From NCBI GenBank assembly GCA_964512995.1, contig CAZELM010000002.1, positions 112,314 to 176,313 on the forward strand: DNA of 64,000 bases. The letters are read 5' to 3'. Every line of letters starts with the position of its first letter. The first letter of the stretch is position 1. The position numbers and the translations under genes were made by a program. This document shows positions 3,377 through 61,407 of this stretch, in pieces. The notes under the pieces are model-generated. The model did no database searches. It saw only the letters and a program-made list of their open reading frames with translations, and had not been told where the DNA came from. This DNA is from an uncultured bacterium (GTDB lineage Bacteria; CSSED10-310).

Positions 3377-6300
3377 TTAAAAATCTGATTTGATCTTGAA
3401 GACACGATAGTGATGTGCGTCAATCACCAGGATATCGCCTGCTTTGTCCAGTGCCAGTCCCATAGGCAGAATGAATGGTTGACTGTCATCCGTTGCTGAT
3501 CGAAATGTCTTGATCAGATTCCCATCCGGATCATAGACAGCAACAAAACGTTTCGTTGGATCAGAGATCCAGATCCGGCCGGACTTATCAGCGACAACGT
3601 ATGGCTCAACAAAAACATCTCCTTCCCACCCATTGAATTTCCATTCTTTGATAAAGTTGCCGTTTGTGTCCAGTATCTGAACTCTGAAATTATGGGTATC
3701 CAGAATGATCAATTGATCATTGAAGACACAAATACCAATGGGAGTGTCAAACTCGCCGGGGCCTTTTCCCAATTTTCCGAAAATGGCGACTTCCTTCCCA
3801 TCATTCGTGTATTTGATGATCCGACCGTTGCCAGTATCTGCAAGGTAAACATATCCTTTGCCATCTGTCGCAATGCCTCTGGGATAGAAGTAGTTCCCCT
3901 GATCCGTTACCCATGTTTTAACAAACTCTCCGGTATGCGTAAATTTCTGGATTCGATTGTTGAATGTATCGGCAACATACACGCCATCGGCATCTACCGC
4001 AACGTCGCACAGGTCGTTGAACTGCCCGGGTTCACTCCCAGTCGTTCCCCAAGCCAAGATCCAGTTTCCATCCGGATCGAATTTCTGTATCCGATGGTTC
4101 CTGAAATCAGCGACATAAATGGTACCATCCGCATCCGTTGTCATCGATCGTGGTTCATCGAACATACCCCGGGACTCTCCCTGACCGCCCTGGAAAACGG
4201 TTCGGGGTGGCATATTTCGAATGGCTGCTGTTCGGGCTTCCTCTGCTTTCTCTGCCTCCTCCTTGCGGCGGACTGCTTCCTGTTCCAATCGTTCCTGGAG
4301 TTTGGCGAGGGCATCACTGTCTGCAGCGACCTTGGCAAAATCGACATTCAACCCATAATCATTGACCTTGTAGATGGTCACATCAGGATTAGCGTATGCT
4401 GGAGTCATATAATCCGTGAGTTCCGCGAACTTGCTGATACCGGCGTCGGAATACTCCGCTTTTTCTGTTTTGCCGACGTAAATATAATCAACCTGATATA
4501 ACCGGAGCAACTCCAATACTTCCGGGACATCCAGGCTTTCGTACATCGTCACGATATCCTGTTTCATCTTTCCGGTATTCCGCTGATATTCCCGCTGATC
4601 GACATGGCTCCACCATCCCAAAACACAGGGTAATCCCGTGTTGGCGGAGATCTTGGCGTATTTATAGAGATAATCCGCTCCAGATGCTTCCAGCAGCGTA
4701 GCATATCCTTTTACATTTTTATTCAGCCAGTCGACAGCGCGATATTCATTTTTCCATTCACCCTGCTTCATATATGCCCAACCGTCCAACGTGAGCGGCA
4801 GTTCCACTCGATTATACTCATCATGGTGTCTTCTGGCTCTGGGACCTTCAACGGTGAAAATCAAACTGCATCCGAGCAATACAATAAATATTGCATTCCA
4901 GACCCACCGGCTGAGCCGGCTCATTCTCTTGATAAATCTCGTTGGATGATCCGGAATACTGATCAATGATCGGTTGGCAAGAAAATAGGCAGATACAATG
5001 CCAAACAGGAACCACGCCTGGAGATAAAACTTGAAAATCGTGTTGAATCGGCGATGATCCCCTCCCTGATAAAAATCCTTGATGAAGAAAATCTCGCATC
5101 CTGCCGTGATCGCAAACGCCATCAAGGCCAGCAGCAGGACGAATACCTGATTGAGTGTCGGCTTTCCGGATAACAGAATATAAATGATCATTACACCAAC
5201 ACAAACACTCCAAAGGAATACGGCATAATCGATCTGGAGCGGGGGGATAAATCTGAAAATGGAATATACTCCAAGAAGACCGAAAAAGATCGCACCTCCA
5301 TAGACATAGATTCTGGTAATGGATCGCCCCTTCTGACGATTGACATGATACCACCACCGGATTACCTGAGTGGTAATAATAAACAAAAACAATCCGAACA
5401 TGGTGATAAATCCGTCCAGATTCGTTGTTTGCCGATGTTTCCAAAGAGTTCCGACACCCATACCCTTGCGAGAAAAATGCATCAGATATGGCAGATACAG
5501 CACGATCGCACCCACGACCAGAACAATACATGGAACAAGAAGCGTCCACAGGAATTGGACATTCTCTATCGACTCCGTCACGGCAAATCTGCTGAACGCA
5601 ATCATTCTTTCTTTGAACGATTTTCGAGGAATTGGAGGTATTGCTGATAGATCGGTAACGGGTGATATTTCTGTCGGCTCCAGACCGGCGACTTCCGGGT
5701 CCTTTCCGCCACATAACTCACGATCCTCATCCGACACCGATTCAGATGCTGCGTCCGTCAATGAATCCTGTGCATTTTCAGTATCAGAACCCGATTCTAG
5801 CTCCTCTTTGTTCAAAATCGATGATTCGGGATCCTCAATCGTCAATGATTCCTCTTCGATCTCCATTTTCTGGGAAACAATCGTATTATCAGAAGAAGCT
5901 GAGGCGAATTCTGCTTGCTTCGCATCTGACACAACGAGATGATCCGTCGGTTCCTCTTCCTTCGTCTGAATAAGATCCGATGAGTCGTCTGAGGACAATG
6001 TAACCTGAGGGATTATCCGTGTCTTCTGATTTTGGATATGTGCGATCGTTTCGACAGGTTCAGAATGGCTGATGGAGCCATAGTCCTTCTCCTGGAGATC
6101 ATCAGCTAGGATTTCTCCGGGAGTTGGTTGCTCCGATGCCGAATTTTCTGAAATATCATCCAGTTCCGGTTGTTCTGCCAGAGCATCCGTTTTGATGTCT
6201 GACGCCCTCGCCGATTCGGGAGATGTTTCTTGGGGAGCGGATTCATGCGGAATCTGCTGGGAAGCAGGTTTTGGGGGTTCGGCTGAAACGATGCGTTTAT

Positions 6301-18942: not shown

Positions 18943-19026
18943 GTGTGCGAGGAGGGGGAGTTGAACCCCCACGTTAAAAACACTGGATCCTAAGTCCAGC
19001 GCGTCTGCCAATTCCGCCATCCTCGC
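18943..19026 (-). tRNA. tRNA-Leu (anticodon TAG), long variable arm
   Basis: Reverse complement reads GCGAGGATGGCGGAATTGGCAGACGCGCTGGACTTAGGATCCAG...GGGGGTTCAACTCCCCCTCCTCGCA. The anticodon loop is CTTAGGA. Confidence 0.8.
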
Positions 19027-19053
19027 TTGAAACGCCGATTCATCATCATCGAT

Positions 19054-19128
<75 letters not shown>

Positions 19129-19181
19129 CGTTCAGGAAATCTGCTTCGCTCGTTTTCTGAAACGGATTCCCTAAAAAATTG

Positions 19182-19256
19182 GGTGAGTGAAGGGATTTGA
19201 ACCCTCGACCTCCTGATCCACAGTCAGGCGCTCTAACCAACTGAGCTACACTCACC
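19182..19256 (-). tRNA. tRNA-His (anticodon GTG) with G-1
   Basis: Reverse complement reads GGTGAGTGTAGCTCAGTTGGTTAGAGCGCCTGACTGTGGATCAGG...GGGTTCAAATCCCTTCACTCACC. The anticodon loop is CTGTGGA, and an extra 5' G is present as expected for His. Confidence 0.8.
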
Positions 19257-19315
19257 ATAATAATCTGAACCTACCGACCTGATATGTGGAATCTAAATTC
19301 CGCATTGAATCTGCT

Positions 19316-19389
<74 letters not shown>

Positions 19390-19421
19390 ATCACCAACAG
19401 GTCGCATCATTATCAATGGGT

Positions 19422-19495
<74 letters not shown>

Positions 19496-19533
19496 ATGCG
19501 TTCCGTATTAAACGGCTGCGCAAGCTTCATCTT

Positions 19534-53192: not shown

Positions 53193-53244
53193 CCTCACCC
53201 CCAACCCCTCTCCATGAATGGCGAGGGGCCCATGGGTATGTTCC
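53193..53244 (+). repeat. REP-like palindromic intergenic element, copy 1
   Basis: CCTCACCCCCAACCCCTCTCCATGAATGGCGAGGGGCC. A hairpin forms between CCCCTCTCCAT and ATGGCGAGGGG. Confidence 0.7.
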
Positions 53245-53257
53245 TTTATTTTTTCGA

Positions 53258-53304
53258 TCTCACCCCAGCCCCTCTCCATGAATAGCAAGGGGCATATTGG
53301 GTGG
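53258..53304 (+). repeat. REP-like element, copy 2 (tandem with copy 1, between sucC and sucD)
   Basis: ATCTCACCCCAGCCCCTCTCCATGAATAGCAAGGGGCATATTGGGTGG. Confidence 0.7.
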
Positions 53305-53407: not shown

Positions 53408-54580
53408 TCACTCCACGCTTGCAATCACTTTCTGCGCGGCTTCCGCCATTGTACCAGCGACTTCCAGTTTCAGTCCGGATTCCATCAGAAGCTGATTTGC
53501 GATATCGGCATTCGTGCCATTCAGCCGTACGACCAGGGGCCGATTCATTCCGACATGCTGAACCGCATGAATGATGCCACGCGCCACCCGATCGCACCGT
53601 ACAATCCCGCCAAAAATATTGACCAGCACCGCTCGAACATCCGGATCAGCCAGCAGGATGGTAAACGCGGCGGTTATCGACTCTTCATCCGCACCGCCAC
53701 CGACATCCAGGAAATTCGCAGGCGAAGCGCCATAGTATTTGATCAGATCCATGGTAGCCATGGCCAATCCGGCGCCATTCACCATACACCCGATATTCCC
53801 ATCCAGCTTGATATAGTTGAGTCCATATCTGGAGGCTTCGACTTCCAAAGGGGATTCCTCATTCAAATCCCGCAGTTGCAGGATCTCCGGATGCCGGTAT
53901 AACGCAGATTCATCAAAATTGATTTTGGCATCCAATGCGATCACGAGACCGTTTCGCGTCACCGCCAGGGGATTGATCTCCACCTGAGATGCATCGAGTT
54001 CGATGAACATCCGATAGACATTCAGGAATAACCGAGCGGCATCCTGGAAGTGGCTTCCCTTCAATCCCAGGCCGAGTGCGATTCGCCGAGCCTGATATGC
54101 GGACATGCCGGCCAATGGATGAATATATTCCTTAATGATCAGTTCGGGATGCGCGGCAGCGACCGATTCGATCTCCATTCCGCCTTGTGTGGAAGCCATC
54201 ATGACCGGCTGCTCTTTCTGACGATCCAGCACCATCCCCACATACAGCTCCCGTTCCACATCCAGACAAGCCTGGACGATCATCACTTTTCGCACGATCC
54301 GGCCTTCCGGTCCTGTCTGATGCGTCACCAGCTTCATTCCCAGCATTTTTTCCAGTGCTTTCCCGACATCCTCCAGAGTATCACAGCCAATGACTCCTCC
54401 CGCTTTACCCCGGCCGCCGGCATGCACCTGTGCTTTTACAAACAACCGGGGGCATTCCGAGCGCCACATCTCCCTGGCAATCCGCATTCCCTCCTCCACC
54501 GTTGAAACAGCGTCCCCCAGCGGAACAGGAATGCCGAACTGAGCCATCAGATTCTTCGCTTGATACTCATGGATCTTCAT
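53408..54580 (-). CDS. sucC: Succinyl-CoA synthetase beta subunit
   Basis: MKIHEYQAKNLMAQFGIPVP start, with an ATP-grasp fold. Confidence 0.9.
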   Translation of the reverse strand: MKIHEYQAKNLMAQFGIPVPLGDAVSTVEEGMRIAREMWRSECPRLFVKAQVHAGGRGKAGGVIGCDTLEDVGKALEKMLGMKLVTHQTGPEGRIVRKVMIVQACLDVERELYVGMVLDRQKEQPVMMASTQGGMEIESVAAAHPELIIKEYIHPLAGMSAYQARRIALGLGLKGSHFQDAARLFLNVYRMFIELDASQVEINPLAVTRNGLVIALDAKINFDESALYRHPEILQLRDLNEESPLEVEASRYGLNYIKLDGNIGCMVNGAGLAMATMDLIKYYGASPANFLDVGGGADEESITAAFTILLADPDVRAVLVNIFGGIVRCDRVARGIIHAVQHVGMNRPLVVRLNGTNADIANQLLMESGLKLEVAGTMAEAAQKVIASVE

Positions 54581-54657
54581 ATCGCGACCTCCCAATTTCC
54601 CCGTTATATAAAAACTGGAAATCTCCTCTGAACGAGGCTACATTCTACCTGACAGTG

Positions 54658-55686
54658 ATGGGCTGTCAAAATCTTTTTACTCGATCCACCATAATCCACC
54701 CGCCGAACCACCTCCCCTGGAGAATTCGATTGAGACTGTTTTTCGTCATCGGGAAAGGTGGTGTTGGAAAAACAACCATCACCTCCGCACTCGCCCACCC
54801 ATTCCGCAACAATGGTGGCGTATTGGTTGTTACCATCGATCAGCCGGATCAGGCAGCTCATTCCCCAAAAAAACCATTTCCGCCAAGCGTTCCGCAGCAA
54901 CTCTCCGATGGGTTCTGGACCATTCATCTGGACCGTGATCGATGCCTCCATGAGTTCATCTCCGGATTCCTGAAAATCAATATTCTGTCCCGATGGATAC
55001 TGGATCATCCCATATTCCCCTATATCACTGGAGTTGCTCCTGGGATTCGCGAGTATTTGGTGTTGGACCGCCTGAGAACATTTACTCGCAGTTCCTGGCA
55101 GTCGTCATGGCACACGATCATCGTCGACGCACCCGCCACCGGACATGGCGTTCATCTGTTGCAGGCTTCCGCACCATTGGCCACTATTCTGAAATTCGGA
55201 CCGCTCCGGTCCCGGATCACAAAAACAGACGCCATGATCCATAACCCCCATATCACCCGAGCGATCCTGGTCACCATCCCGGAAGAGCTTCCGGTTCAGG
55301 AAACCATCGAACTGCATGCGCAGTTGCACCGGTCCGGTATACCCATTCACGCCATCGTGATCAATCAGTGCGAGCACCGGTCGCTGGGACCCAGGGAGTC
55401 GGCTATCTGGAAAAATCTATCCACGGAAACCGATCCTCTCTTTCCGGATGAGACCGACTCGCCTCCCCTGATCGCGGATCGATTCCGCAACATCAACGAT
55501 ATTCTCGATCTTCAGGAGAAGCGCTATCATCTTTCCGTCAAAAACATCCAGCGACTCAAACGGGCGATTACAGGTTCATTCATCGAGATCCCGTTCATTC
55601 CGGAACCGGAGCCGTCCCGGTTGATCGCTCAAATGACGCCATATCTGGACTGTCCTGGCATCCTGGAGGAACAACGGAGTGACTAA
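54658..55686 (+). CDS. ArsA/Get3-family ATPase, half-size (first of a tandem pair)
   Basis: P-loop GKGGVGKTTITSALA and the ArsA signature DAPATGHGVHLL (DTAPTGH-type). Confidence 0.7.
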   Translation: MGCQNLFTRSTIIHPPNHLPWRIRLRLFFVIGKGGVGKTTITSALAHPFRNNGGVLVVTIDQPDQAAHSPKKPFPPSVPQQLSDGFWTIHLDRDRCLHEFISGFLKINILSRWILDHPIFPYITGVAPGIREYLVLDRLRTFTRSSWQSSWHTIIVDAPATGHGVHLLQASAPLATILKFGPLRSRITKTDAMIHNPHITRAILVTIPEELPVQETIELHAQLHRSGIPIHAIVINQCEHRSLGPRESAIWKNLSTETDPLFPDETDSPPLIADRFRNINDILDLQEKRYHLSVKNIQRLKRAITGSFIEIPFIPEPEPSRLIAQMTPYLDCPGILEEQRSD

Positions 55687-56818
55687 ACAGCCACATCTCA
55701 TCCTGCTGTGTGGGAGCGGAGGCGTCGGCAAGACCAGCATGGCTGCTTCTCTGGCGCTTCAGGGAGCCATGTTGGGCCGTGATGTGATGGCATTCACGAT
55801 CGATCCAGCCCGTCGGCTTGCAGATGCACTCGGGATCGAACTCCACGGAACCGATGTTTCGGAAATTCAACCGGCGGAATCTTTTCCTGTCCACGGCCGA
55901 TTCCGAGCCTCCATGCTGGACCTCCATGGCACCGCTTCAGAACTGATCAGACGCTACTGTTCATCCCCGGCGATGGCCGATGCCATCATTTCCAATCCGC
56001 TGTTCCGCACCGCAGTGGCTTCCATGGCCGGAGCGGAAGAATTCATTGCACTTGGCAATGTATTTCAGCTTCTGGCAGATGGCGACATGGAGTTTCTCAT
56101 TGTCGATACCGCTCCGTCTCACCATGCGCTCCAATTTTTCACTGCACCGGACCGGTTGATTCAAGTTCTGAATCCCGCAATCCTCCACCGGATCTATCAG
56201 CCTTTGAACCGATTCCGCCTGACTGGATCATTGACATCCCGGACACCGATCGCTCCGCTCCTGAATCAGATGATCCGAGTGTTGTTCGGTCTCGAAATCG
56301 TTCAGAACCTGTCGGATCTCGCCACTCATCTGAAAAGCCTGCTGGATGATTTCAGACATCGTGTGGAATCGATTCGCAGCCTGCTGCGGGATCCTGACAG
56401 AACATCGTGTATCATTGTCACCACACCGGATTACCGGTCGATTCGGGAAACGGAATCCATGATCGATCAGATCGCAACAGAACAGATTCATCCGATGGCT
56501 CTGATCGTGAATCGGATTTTTCCGTTTACGGGAACGGGCCGGGAACCGGATATCGGGATGATCCGATCCATGTCCAGTGCTCAAGAACTGACGTCGATTC
56601 AAAAACGGATTCTCACGAAAATCAGCAACCTGGAACAGGAGTGGCTGAAACGGGCGCAGATCCAGCAGCAGTTCATCGACCGTATTCTCAACAGGCATCC
56701 GGAGATTCCGCATCTCATCCGTATCCCGCTCCGCGCTCTCGATATTTCCAGCCTTTCAGATCTCGTGTGTTTTCACAATGAACTGGAACCGTTGAGCCGG
56801 AAGTTGTTTTTGAAATAA
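55679..56818 (+). CDS. ArsA/Get3-family ATPase, half-size (second of a tandem pair). The GTG start overlaps the upstream stop by 8 nt.
   Basis: P-loop CGSGGVGKTSMAASLA and a degenerate signature DTAPSHHALQFF. Confidence 0.7.
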   Translation: MTKQPHLILLCGSGGVGKTSMAASLALQGAMLGRDVMAFTIDPARRLADALGIELHGTDVSEIQPAESFPVHGRFRASMLDLHGTASELIRRYCSSPAMADAIISNPLFRTAVASMAGAEEFIALGNVFQLLADGDMEFLIVDTAPSHHALQFFTAPDRLIQVLNPAILHRIYQPLNRFRLTGSLTSRTPIAPLLNQMIRVLFGLEIVQNLSDLATHLKSLLDDFRHRVESIRSLLRDPDRTSCIIVTTPDYRSIRETESMIDQIATEQIHPMALIVNRIFPFTGTGREPDIGMIRSMSSAQELTSIQKRILTKISNLEQEWLKRAQIQQQFIDRILNRHPEIPHLIRIPLRALDISSLSDLVCFHNELEPLSRKLFLK

Positions 56819-56864
56819 CCTCACCCCAGCCCCTCTCCATGAGTGGAGAGGGATTATTGGGTGG
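56818..56864 (+). repeat. REP-like element, copy 3
   Basis: ACCTCACCCCAGCCCCTCTCCATGAGTGGAGAGGGATTATTGGGTGG. Confidence 0.7.
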
Positions 56865-59066: not shown

Positions 59067-59831
59067 TCAAGCGGACGGTTCAGATGCTTCGGATAACGTG
59101 CTGGCAGGTAAGTCTGCCGGATTGGCGGATTTGGTGCGACGTGTCCCGGCATCGATGATCATCCGAGCATTGAAATAATCCTGATAGAACTGGGGATGAC
59201 TGCTTTTCAGGAAGATCACCATGGGATCCATCTTGAACTTCAGGATGCGATCGACCTCTTTGAAGAGCGCTTTGAGATCGGCAGTACAGGCTTTTTTTAA
59301 GGCGCGGATTTCCCGTGGCTTTACAATGGCGTCTTCGAATGCGCTGACCTTGACACGGAAGTTATCCAGAATGGATTCCGTGATCCCGTAGTCCGCCAGT
59401 GGGATGATGCGTTCTTCGGTCAGTGTCTTGATGGTCGTACACCGCTGTAAAATCTCGAAGTCGCGGAAGCGGATGCTCGAGTAGGTCAGATGCGCTTTTC
59501 GCATCAGGGGCAGATCATCCGTGTTTTCGGCGTAGAAACAAATACCTTTCGCGATCTGAACAGCGGACTCGACCATCGCGATTTTCAGATTGAGCTTGGC
59601 CTGAGTGAACCCGGTCGTTGTCGTGTCCTGAAGGCGGAACAGCTCCTTGATCCGCGACAGAAGAACACAGAATGTCTGAAAGGCTTCCTTGAATGCAGGA
59701 AGACTATTGATCAACTCGATCTGACGTTCACAGACAATCTGGGTAGCATAATTCATCGACATCTTGCTGTTTTGTGTCTTGTTCATACAAAAACCTCCTG
59801 ATAACTGTTTAGAAGATGAAAAAAGAACCAT
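59067..59831 (-). CDS. Hypothetical alpha-helical protein; no recognisable domain
   Basis: A clean 254-aa ORF, probably starting at MNKTQNSK. It lies next to the repeat array. Confidence 0.4.
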   Translation of the reverse strand: MVLFSSSKQLSGGFCMNKTQNSKMSMNYATQIVCERQIELINSLPAFKEAFQTFCVLLSRIKELFRLQDTTTTGFTQAKLNLKIAMVESAVQIAKGICFYAENTDDLPLMRKAHLTYSSIRFRDFEILQRCTTIKTLTEERIIPLADYGITESILDNFRVKVSAFEDAIVKPREIRALKKACTADLKALFKEVDRILKFKMDPMVIFLKSSHPQFYQDYFNARMIIDAGTRRTKSANPADLPASTLSEASEPSA

Positions 59832-59996
59832 GGAATACTGATTGGCCTCTATACCCAGTTACCTGTCACATATGCATTCACAACAACTGATTGTTATATA
59901 CAGAATCGATTCCAATGAAATCAAGGAAAAAATTATTTTTATTTATAACCTGTTATATTTAAATGATAAGGATGAGGGGAGACGATTGGTTTTTGC

Positions 59997-60040
59997 CCTC
60001 ACCCCAGCCCCTCTCCATGAATGGCGAGGGATATATGTGC
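59997..60040 (+). repeat. REP-like element, copy 4
   Basis: CCTCACCCCAGCCCCTCTCCATGAATGGCGAGGGATATATGTGC. Confidence 0.7.
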
Positions 60041-60095
60041 GAGGTGATTCAGGCATATTTCATCCCATCACAACGAACAACCATTGCATTCAGCG

Positions 60096-60500
60096 GAACG
60101 GTTATCACATCAAATGCCGTGATCATTACATTCAAACGCAAAGTAGGTGCAGTTTTTTAACCTGCACCTACGTGTATGCCACCGGCGATTACATCCACCG
60201 GAGCGATCATTACATCACACGCCGTGATCATTACATTCAAACACAGTGGCGATTACATTCAAACACAGTGGCGATTACATTCGCCAAGACGATCATCACA
60301 TCACACGGAACGTTCATTACATCACACGCCGTGATCATTACATTCAAACATAGCGGCGATTACATTCGCCAAGACGATCATCACATCACACGGAACGTTC
60401 ATTACATCACACGCCGTGATCATTACATTCAAACATAGCGGCGATTACATTCGCCAAGACGATCATCACATCACACGGAGCGATCCTCACATGCAAACGC
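60096..60500. repeat. Iteron-like tandem array: about 17 degenerate ~21-bp units (core GATCATTACATCACAC) organised into three ~85-bp super-repeats
   Basis: Near-identical 85-bp blocks lie at about 60226-60310, 60311-60395 and 60396-60480. Sub-units are spaced 19-24 bp apart. The ORF-track 'protein' HYITRRDHYIQT across this region is a repeat artefact. Confidence 0.75.
60143..60171. repeat. Perfect 10-bp-stem hairpin (GTAGGTGCAG-TTTTTTAA-CCTGCACCTAC) bounding the array
   Basis: Inverted repeat read directly from the sequence. No trailing U-tract. Confidence 0.7.
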
Positions 60501-60503
60501 AGA

Positions 60504-60532
60504 GTAGGTGCAGGTTAAAAACCTGCACCTAC
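60504..60532. repeat. Second copy of the same hairpin (GTAGGTGCAGG-TTAAAAA-CCTGCACCTAC) at the other array boundary. A third, partial copy lies at 60594-60616.
   Basis: Inverted repeat read directly from the sequence. Confidence 0.7.
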
Positions 60533-60876
60533 GTGCATGCAACGGGGGATTGGCTCATCATGGATTATATCCGATCAATGGGCGAGAACAGATACAGGTG
60601 AAAAACCTGCACCTACATTCTGCCAGGGGAGAATGGTTTATCCGGGAATATTTGTTCATCTACGTCATTCCCGAAAACAGGGATTCGACTCAATCTATTT
60701 ATCTTGTAATATCTTCTCATATCGATAAAATAGAGTGGTTCAGATGGTTCTGAGAACCTCTGAAGGTCGGTACCATGTCATTTCACATGAACAAATGAAT
60801 TCGTTCCGGAATTCAACACTTTTCAGAATGACGGGCTGATCCAATCTGATAACGGATGTAATACCTTCTATCTTTA

Positions 60877-61407
60877 ATGGGAGATGGCGTCATGGGAGTT
60901 ATCTTTGACGAACTATCAAAACGGTTTCCGAATTATCCACACCTGAGACAGGTCGAAGACTTCGTCAGCGGTCTGGTTCGAGATATGGATCCGTTGTTGA
61001 TCATCATGTTTGGTGCGTTACCCCGGGAAGATTATACTCACAACAGTGATGTTGATGTACTGCTGGTTTTTGATAAACCTGTCACCTGGAATGAGGTGTT
61101 TGCTTATGGCAGCGGCATCGTGCAGCCCATATCCAAAACCAAGGAAGATTTCATATCCCAGCTCAAGAGAGGAAATGCATTCTTTATCCAGATCATGGAG
61201 GAAGGTATCATTCTTCATGCAAAACAGAATGTGCTTGGCGAATTTCGGGAGATCGCGTCAGAAACCATCACCAACATGAAAATGATCCGTGTTGAAAAAG
61301 GATGGGATATCCTGGAATCCGAAGAAGAAGAAGAGAGTGTTGAAGAAGAAATAACCGATACCGACGATGAAGACGACATCGAAGAAGAGAGTTCTGACGA
61401 ATTATAA
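60877..61407 (+). CDS. Minimal nucleotidyltransferase (Pol-beta superfamily, MNT-like) with a poly-acidic C-terminal tail
   Basis: NTase motif FGALPREDYTHNSDVDVLLV (G[SA]...DxD). Tail ESEEEEESVEEEITDTDDEDDIEEESSDEL. Confidence 0.65.
   Translation: MGDGVMGVIFDELSKRFPNYPHLRQVEDFVSGLVRDMDPLLIIMFGALPREDYTHNSDVDVLLVFDKPVTWNEVFAYGSGIVQPISKTKEDFISQLKRGNAFFIQIMEEGIILHAKQNVLGEFREIASETITNMKMIRVEKGWDILESEEEEESVEEEITDTDDEDDIEEESSDEL

Follow-up and report, generated by a model that had tools for sequence, protein, structure and literature searches.

We analysed a 64,000-nt stretch of DNA from an uncultured bacterium of the GTDB lineage CSSED10-310 (contig CAZELM010000002.1, positions 112,314 to 176,313 of the forward strand; hereafter the window, numbered from its first letter), with a focus on a tandem array of ~21-bp units and on the gene beside it. 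The array occupies part of the 1.09 kb that separate two divergently oriented genes. On its left is gene A (59067-59786, minus strand), which encodes a 239-aa protein and has an AGGAGG 7 nt before its ATG; to its right is a gene for a Pol-beta/MNT-like nucleotidyltransferase (60877-61407, plus strand). The array proper spans 60062-60548 and gives way to a decayed distal end (60549-60616), which closes with a degenerate copy of a hairpin that the array carries twice. Between array and gene A lie an AT-rich spacer (59876-59995; 28-30% G+C over 59850-59999) and the leader or promoter region of gene A (59787-59875, minus strand).

A preliminary description, made from the letters alone, had reported a non-coding, iteron-like array of ~21-bp tandem units at this locus, and this was borne out: Tandem Repeats Finder gave a period of 21 with 14.8 copies at 60188-60502, and across the array every minus-strand frame is interrupted by 13-25 stops. 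The finer details required revision. Where about 17 units of 21 bp had been counted, there are indeed 17 simple units, 13 of them 21 bp and four (4/17) 22 bp long, and two further units of 63 bp (3 x 21) that bear the hairpins bring the total to 19. An organisation in three 85-bp blocks had also been proposed; an 85-bp higher-order repeat (21+21+21+22) is present with 90% identity, but in 3.5 copies that cover only part of the array (60183-60479). It is this part of the array that was recently homogenised. The start of the array is near 60062 and not at 60096, and the 16-mer GATCATTACATCACAC that had been taken for the repeated core occurs exactly only once. Instead, all units begin on the plus strand with ATYACAT and follow one another head to tail; this conserved core has 16 in-phase copies, and the unit consensus reads gcGatcATtACAT.c.ac, with the remainder of the unit variable. 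A GATC had been singled out within the core, and it is present in the units, but GATC is in unusual excess throughout the window (601 copies vs ~247 expected from base composition, or 2.4-fold), so its presence there is not distinctive; a Dam/GATC switch was rejected on the same ground.

These motifs are confined to the array locus. GATYATYACATYV occurs eight times, always within the array, against 0.23 copies expected in the 64-kb window, and CCTGCACCTAC, with at most one mismatch, occurs five times, always at the array locus, against 0.33 expected. Neither the hairpin nor the unit core was found elsewhere in the 64 kb, which led us to discard a reading as dispersed palindromes of the REP/BIME type, and no second tandem array of this kind was found in the window. 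The array is real as read from the assembled contig, in which an assembly artefact is conceivable; comparable arrays are present in independent JGI, ENA and NCBI assemblies.

The two hairpins had been described as identical, perfect and bracketing the array, and none of these three points held. Hairpin 1 (GTAGGTGCAGTTTTTTAACCTGCACCTAC, 60143-60171) has three array units to its left and a perfect stem of only 10 bp, within 13-bp arms that contain one mismatch, while hairpin 2 (GTAGGTGCAGGTTAAAAACCTGCACCTAC, 60504-60532) is a perfect 13+3+13 palindrome; they differ in the loop. Both are embedded within the array at a distance of 361 bp and belong to a larger repeat (60083-60190 vs 60444-60551, 77% match), and since each sits inside a 63-bp unit the 21-bp phase is kept. 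Each repeats the other in inverted orientation (29 nt, 97%) as well as in direct orientation. On the minus strand, which is the sense strand of gene A, hairpin 1 is followed by TTTGCGTTTG and hairpin 2 by TCTGCGTTTG; hairpin 1 is the closer to gene A, and three further units plus 275 bp come after it. The third copy (60585-60616) carries four substitutions and keeps 12 pairs on the minus strand only, by means of G.U pairs. The hairpin had no matches in 143 fetched loci or in viral contigs.

Known classes of repeat and of RNA were also considered. Rfam returned nothing at the gathering threshold, and at E<=1 only chance-level matches to snR33 and STnc560. Single-stranded folding of the array beat shuffled sequences on both strands (z -7.8 and -5.5), a result that the palindromes dominate. 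A CRISPR array was rejected because the units are contiguous, without spacers. Readings of the unit or the spacer as Fur boxes, DnaA boxes or sigma-54 sites were likewise set aside, a sigma-54-like site being seen only at one of the related loci described below (L122).

Gene A had no match in Pfam, NCBIfam, PADLOC or PHROGs, and our literature search found no description of its family, of the arrays or of the array-gene pair. A genome-collection protein scan also gave no match. An exhaustive profile search, on the other hand, recovered a family of 4449 representatives, 2389 of them at E<=1e-10; members are mostly ~230 aa long and some carry a C-terminal CarboxypepD_reg domain. The preliminary description had suggested examining this neighbour, then taken as 254 aa, for a DNA-binding fold. 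The protein is predicted to be an elongated, all-alpha bundle without a known domain, and no DNA-binding domain is apparent in it; a first structure model, built from three sequences, was mediocre (predicted local distance difference test score, pLDDT, 74), and Foldseek found no match for it. Weak co-linear matches (E ~0.01) to the NCBIfam model 'PQLLE family protein' (NF052641) were seen for P0009, P0010 and the L129 protein (4001-4918), so that on sequence grounds the gene A family may be remotely related to PQLLE; no literature on the latter was found.

We next compared the surroundings of gene A homologues. About 13 family loci were examined, and a uniform periodicity scan was applied to 12 of them, whose homologues are 22-33% identical; arrays in fetched loci were detected by Tandem Repeats Finder together with an autocorrelation scan. 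The set lies outside the nearest relatives (75% and 53% identity), and exact-protein look-ups for the window's own genes and for the three closest homologues (P0001-3) gave no record; the locus of a 52% homologue, L121, stands outside the array test, its contig starting 88 nt upstream of the gene. A region with a 21-bp period was found at most ~850 bp upstream of the start codon in eight of the 12 loci, which correspond to six of 10 independent lineages. The remaining ~87 kb of the family loci contained only two further arrays (at L128 and L141). As controls we used 120 chance single-match loci, fetched with the loose pattern ACAT..ATYACAT..ATYACAT and amounting to 879 kb, in which there were 14 positive regions, or at most one per 63 kb, in a set that is itself biased towards such arrays; none of the control arrays adjoins a member of the gene A family. 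The probability of six positive lineages in 10 by chance is ~1e-9. As judged from these genome comparisons, array and gene A form a conserved pair whose linkage is kept across lineages.

The positive loci (L122, L124, L127, L129/L130/L131, L132 and L139) differ in layout. At L127, 14 copies with a 125-bp higher-order repeat end ~390 bp before the start codon, and at L129-L131, 10.9-12.2 copies with a 42-bp higher-order repeat end ~120 bp before it. L124 has 3.6 copies ending ~240 bp before the start, whereas at L122 the array fills all of the 250 bp available upstream. At L132, ~18 degenerate units run as far as the ATG without any loss of register, and L139 has ~11 degenerate units upstream of the homologue. 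The L128 array lies just downstream of the gene and the L141 array 1.85 kb upstream, beyond an intervening gene; no array was found at L123 or L125. Among the 13 independent Logan contigs that carry P0173, the six compared (L133-L138) all start at the same base, 106 bp upstream of the gene, at two copies of TCACTTTTTT. Such a shared start suggests that assembly stopped at a tandem repeat, as is expected where a tandem array interrupts de Bruijn assembly.

Apart from the array, little else accompanies gene A. We found no conserved neighbouring regulator, and the neighbours differ in every family locus. The preliminary description had named both flanking genes as the array's only partners: the hypothetical protein, our gene A, remains one, as its homologues have 21-bp arrays upstream, while the MNT-like nucleotidyltransferase is present at no other family locus and drops out. 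At L139 (Flavobacteriales metagenome-assembled genome (MAG) WGMW01000012.1; 895-3982, 5001-5978) the homologue and its array stand beside a SIR2-HerA anti-phage system, with a small Cro/C1-type helix-turn-helix gene alongside. An 88-aa 'gene' annotated there (4645-4911) coincides in part with the array and is probably not a real gene.

What the arrays have in common is their period. Unit consensus sequences are unrelated between lineages, so that a common oriented core across all arrays was rejected, yet the period is always 21 bp. Sequence is shared only within narrower groups: ATGCGGAC by L122 and L124, whose proteins are 50% identical, and CATYGGNATAATTCC by L129-L131. At L132 nothing but TGTTGAAT..CTT is conserved over ~18 units, with zero phase slips, and the degenerate units of L139 likewise keep their register. 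The units of the window and of L132 share one design, a short contiguous conserved core followed by a free spacer. Binding sites show such a core-plus-spacer design, RNA units that each need to fold do not, and one hairpin per unit was rejected as a general rule since folding is at chance level in four arrays. Judging by the aligned units, the phase appears to be under constraint.

At L124 and L141 the upstream gene's terminator is directly followed by the array. Aligned by eye, the window's DNA between spacer and ATG and the 88 nt that precede the L121 homologue are ~85% identical, although the proteins are only 52% identical, and the two regions share an identical 28-mer (GCATATGTGACAGGTAACTGGGTATAGA); a metagenome scan with a 22-mer from this region gave 0 matches. 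The region may be a conserved leader of gene A, either a conserved promoter or a structured leader, and its place between array and ATG puts the gene's leader or promoter downstream of the array.

A conserved period with free sequence, combined with a short core held in register, argues for double-stranded DNA geometry, and arrays that follow an upstream terminator and precede a conserved leader fit an upstream control platform. We favour the interpretation, at somewhat less than even confidence, that the array is a helically phased DNA platform controlling the adjacent gene A; that is, we infer that it acts as DNA rather than RNA and that it regulates gene A. It would be the local copy of a conserved cis element travelling with the gene A family, as one part of a module made up of a 21-bp-period array, a spacer of ~50-390 bp holding the gene's promoter or leader, and the gene. 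With one unit equal to two helical turns, every unit core (ATYACAT here) would fall on one face of the helix, and the phased cores would make up a long one-sided platform, straight or gently superhelical. A protein might bind this platform cooperatively, or the DNA might bend coherently around one, and in this way the platform would govern how the adjacent gene is transcribed. The gene A product is the only conserved candidate for the binder, and nothing marks it as a DNA-binding protein.

Phased operators offer close parallels for such a platform. Known cases include the AraC I1-I2 half-sites, which are 21 bp apart, the 9-bp LytTR repeats with their 12-bp spacers, and tandem pho boxes; curved upstream activating DNA is a further example of phased DNA. 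The arrays resemble these operators in their 21-22-bp period, in having short cores on one helix face and in lying upstream of a promoter. They differ in that known operators comprise 2-4 sites, compared with 10-20 here, in that the core differs fully between lineages, and in that most gene A loci have no such regulator gene next door.

Several observations weigh against a phased platform. The mean unit length in the window is 21.25 bp, so that phasing is not strictly planar; an upstream array is missing in four of the 10 lineages (L123, L125, L128 and L141); and no array-binding protein was identified. Three further points are RNA-like in character and all concern the gene-sense strand: both 13-bp hairpins of the window are followed there by U-rich tails, the third hairpin pairs there alone, all four of its substitutions being wobble-compatible as G.U pairs on that strand, and in the L129-L131 arrays only the sense strand folds better than shuffled sequences (z -2 to -3.3 vs ~0).

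These last three points speak for the strongest alternative, which we consider possible, with a clearly smaller share of our confidence: an RNA module akin to type III toxin-antitoxin or abortive-infection systems. The array would be transcribed in the sense of gene A from a distal promoter, the 13-bp hairpin would terminate transcription leakily and so fix how much repeat RNA is made relative to gene A mRNA, and the repeat RNA would bind, titrate or regulate the gene A protein. Three small hairpin-plus-U sites were also flagged on the gene-sense strand. Type III loci are defined by a tandem array that is followed by a palindromic hairpin and one gene, with a ToxI repeat unit of 36 nt (PMC3401426). 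The window has all three parts, but three more units and 275 bp stand between hairpin 1 and gene A. As in toxIN, cptIN and tenpIN, the parts form a stand-alone cassette in unrelated chromosomal contexts, scattered in chromosomes and at times near defence genes (one copy adjoins the SIR2-HerA system of L139), and the sequence of the repeat is lineage-specific, as would be expected for an RNA and a protein that co-evolve. Nevertheless, gene A is all-alpha, with no similarity to the endoribonucleases ToxN, CptN or TenpN and no PADLOC match. Its 21-nt units fall far below the 36 nt of ToxI, and its arrays are often long and degenerate: the units of L132, L139 and L122 appear too degenerate for functional RNA units, only a 7-8-nt core surviving, and for L122, L124, L127 and L132 local folding does not exceed chance. 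A hairpin between array and gene is seen in the window only and is not conserved at the other loci. Finally, the gene is preceded by a 50-390-bp gap and the conserved leader or promoter, which lies downstream of the array, and a consensus scan of the minus strand found no sigma-70-like promoter distal to the array.

We entertain, as a rather doubtful proposition, that array and gene A are an unrecognised, widespread two-component cassette of FCB-group bacteria in which the all-alpha protein co-evolves with the lineage-specific array and recognises it. Such a cassette could possibly take the form of a repeat-RNA/protein toxin-antitoxin or defence system of the type III kind, or of a self-assembling nucleoprotein on phased DNA. 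Phased binding-site arrays and repeat-plus-gene cassettes are both known kinds of element, and the array-gene pair fits no named family that we tested.

It is unlikely that the array is a neutral or selfish tandem repeat, comparable to a microsatellite, that builds up in front of family members through mutation and is without a function of its own. In favour of it, the 85-bp repeats with their 90% identity show recent unequal crossing-over, copy number varies among close relatives (10.9 to 12.2 in L129-L131), and an upstream array is missing in four of the 10 lineages. A neutral repeat would not, however, be expected to keep the same 21-bp period across lineages at 22-33% protein identity, nor an exact register through ~18 units whose sequence has diverged almost everywhere outside the core, and cores are still conserved inside degenerate units.

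We give slightly less weight still to a phase-variation switch, in which a change in unit number, or inversion of the 332 bp between the palindromes, would toggle gene A or the nucleotidyltransferase gene. The two hairpins have the inverted as well as direct repeat arrangement that inversion would use, near-identical higher-order repeats are prone to slippage, and Logan assemblies appear to break at the array. Against this, there is no recombinase nearby, the hairpins are missing from the other family loci, and efficient slippage is ruled out in arrays as degenerate as those of L132 and L139.

An iteron origin, or a parS- or centromere-like site, of an integrated plasmid, phage or integrative and conjugative element is very improbable, although it was among the first suggestions made for this locus. 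Iterons are exemplified by the R6K gamma ori (7 x 22 bp), pPS10 (4 x 22 bp), the 19-bp repeats of P1 and the RctB sites of Vibrio chromosome 2. Like them, the units are direct repeats of about two helical turns (~17-22 bp in iterons, 21-22 bp here) directly upstream of one gene, with a lineage-specific sequence, a conserved core plus variable spacer and an AT-rich stretch (28-30% G+C) alongside. The gene A arrays differ in being longer, at 10-20 units, and gene A is not a Rep initiator, having neither a winged helix nor another DNA-binding domain. Searches by tblastn with the window protein and with a Bacteroidota-type member found no match to the family in 72,556 plasmids (PLSDB) or 50,697 phages (INPHARED), and two different profiles found none in IMG/VR. 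No Rep, Par or integrase gene lies beside any family locus; across taxa the family appears as a single-gene module in unrelated chromosomal contexts. DnaA boxes in the window are at chance level (19 vs 17.2 expected), with none in the array and none beside it except one inside the nucleotidyltransferase gene. Partition centromeres such as R1 parC (10 x 11 bp) and F sopC (12 x 43 bp) are also long, phased direct-repeat arrays that form an extended nucleoprotein structure. The array differs from them in being off any replicon and in having no ParA/ParM or ParB/ParR gene next to it, the nearby P-loop ATPases being ArsA/Get3/BagB-like and not ParA. With the family missing from the replicon collections and housekeeping genes on the flanks (murC, sucC, glycosyltransferases), there is no support for an integrated replicon's origin or partition site. 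The preliminary description also named a binding-site sponge and a recombination hotspot, both of which are conceivable.

A translated repeat-protein gene, the least credible reading of all, can be dismissed: the plus-strand open reading frame (ORF) at 59842-60438 shifts register at every 22-bp unit, which breaks the frame, has no Pfam match and is a by-product of the stop-poor repeat.

The pairing of array and gene would give an unannotated family of thousands of proteins its first functional handle, in the form of a cis element conserved in geometry and not in sequence. If the phased DNA platform is correct, these loci would be a natural system for studying selection on helical phasing alone, and the array a portable regulatory part. 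If instead the array supplies an RNA partner, repeat-RNA/protein systems would extend beyond the three families into which the known type III toxin-antitoxin systems fall. In practical terms, 21-bp arrays are now miscalled as small ORFs (the 88-aa one in L139 and one of 112 aa in L141), and they seem to break short-read assemblies at a fixed point.

Two arrays of similar period were noticed away from the gene A family. In a Bacteroidetes MAG (L005, CANIQT010000039.1, 2780-2988), ten 21-bp units, each palindromic (CTTTACAATATGATTGTAAAC), lie between a gene for a secreted protein of the type 9 secretion system (T9SS) type and a small membrane protein gene. As no gene A homologue is nearby, 21-bp arrays may be a wider feature of Bacteroidota. 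In Fictibacillus sp. NPDC058756 (L022, ~868-955), four copies of ATCACATAAA and a fifth, degenerate one (AACACATAAT) are spaced by ~21 bp just after a terminator-like hairpin; it resembles an array of phased binding sites and has no relation to the gene A family.

The wider neighbourhood of the array in the window is ordinary chromosomal. The outer neighbours are murC, two ArsA/Get3/BagB-like ATPases, sucC and GT4 glycosyltransferases. The best SucC matches among those listed are 57-67% identical, and those with a taxon name belong to Calditrichota, KSB1, Ignavibacteria, Acidobacteriota, Thermosulfidibacteraceae and Aminicenantes; we take the host to be probably a member of the FCB group. The ArsA/Get3-type ATPase genes are adjacent to each other (54430-56818, plus strand), and murC separates them from the array; the second gives a match to the mycobacterial BagB model with an E-value of 3.7e-57, which is below the cut-off of that model. 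The divergent nucleotidyltransferase has a very acidic C-terminal tail (EEEEESVEEEITDTDDEDDIEEESSDEL), gave only sub-threshold matches to HalB (Hailong), MntA and the PADLOC candidate PDC-S09, and has no adjacent HEPN partner. Gene A was considered for that role and rejected: no conserved Rx4-6H motif was found by eye, and the nucleotidyltransferase is missing from the other loci.

Within the gap, a copy of a dispersed intergenic repeat (CCTCACCCCAGCCCCTCTCCATGAATGGCGAGGG, 59996-60030, plus strand), one of four in the window, lies between the AT-rich spacer and the array; probably inserted without relation to the array, it makes the spacer longer. The shared motif, CC(T)CACCCCAGCCCCTCTCCATGAATGGCGAGGG, occurs on the plus strand at 53205-53227, 53269-53291, 56830-56852 and 60008-60030, against 0 expected per 64 kb; all copies are intergenic and in the same orientation, and look like a REP-like genome-wide element. 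Further away, the window carries a cluster of five tRNA genes (18945-19496, minus strand) for Leu-tag, Arg-tcg, His-gtg, Arg-tct and Pro-tgg.

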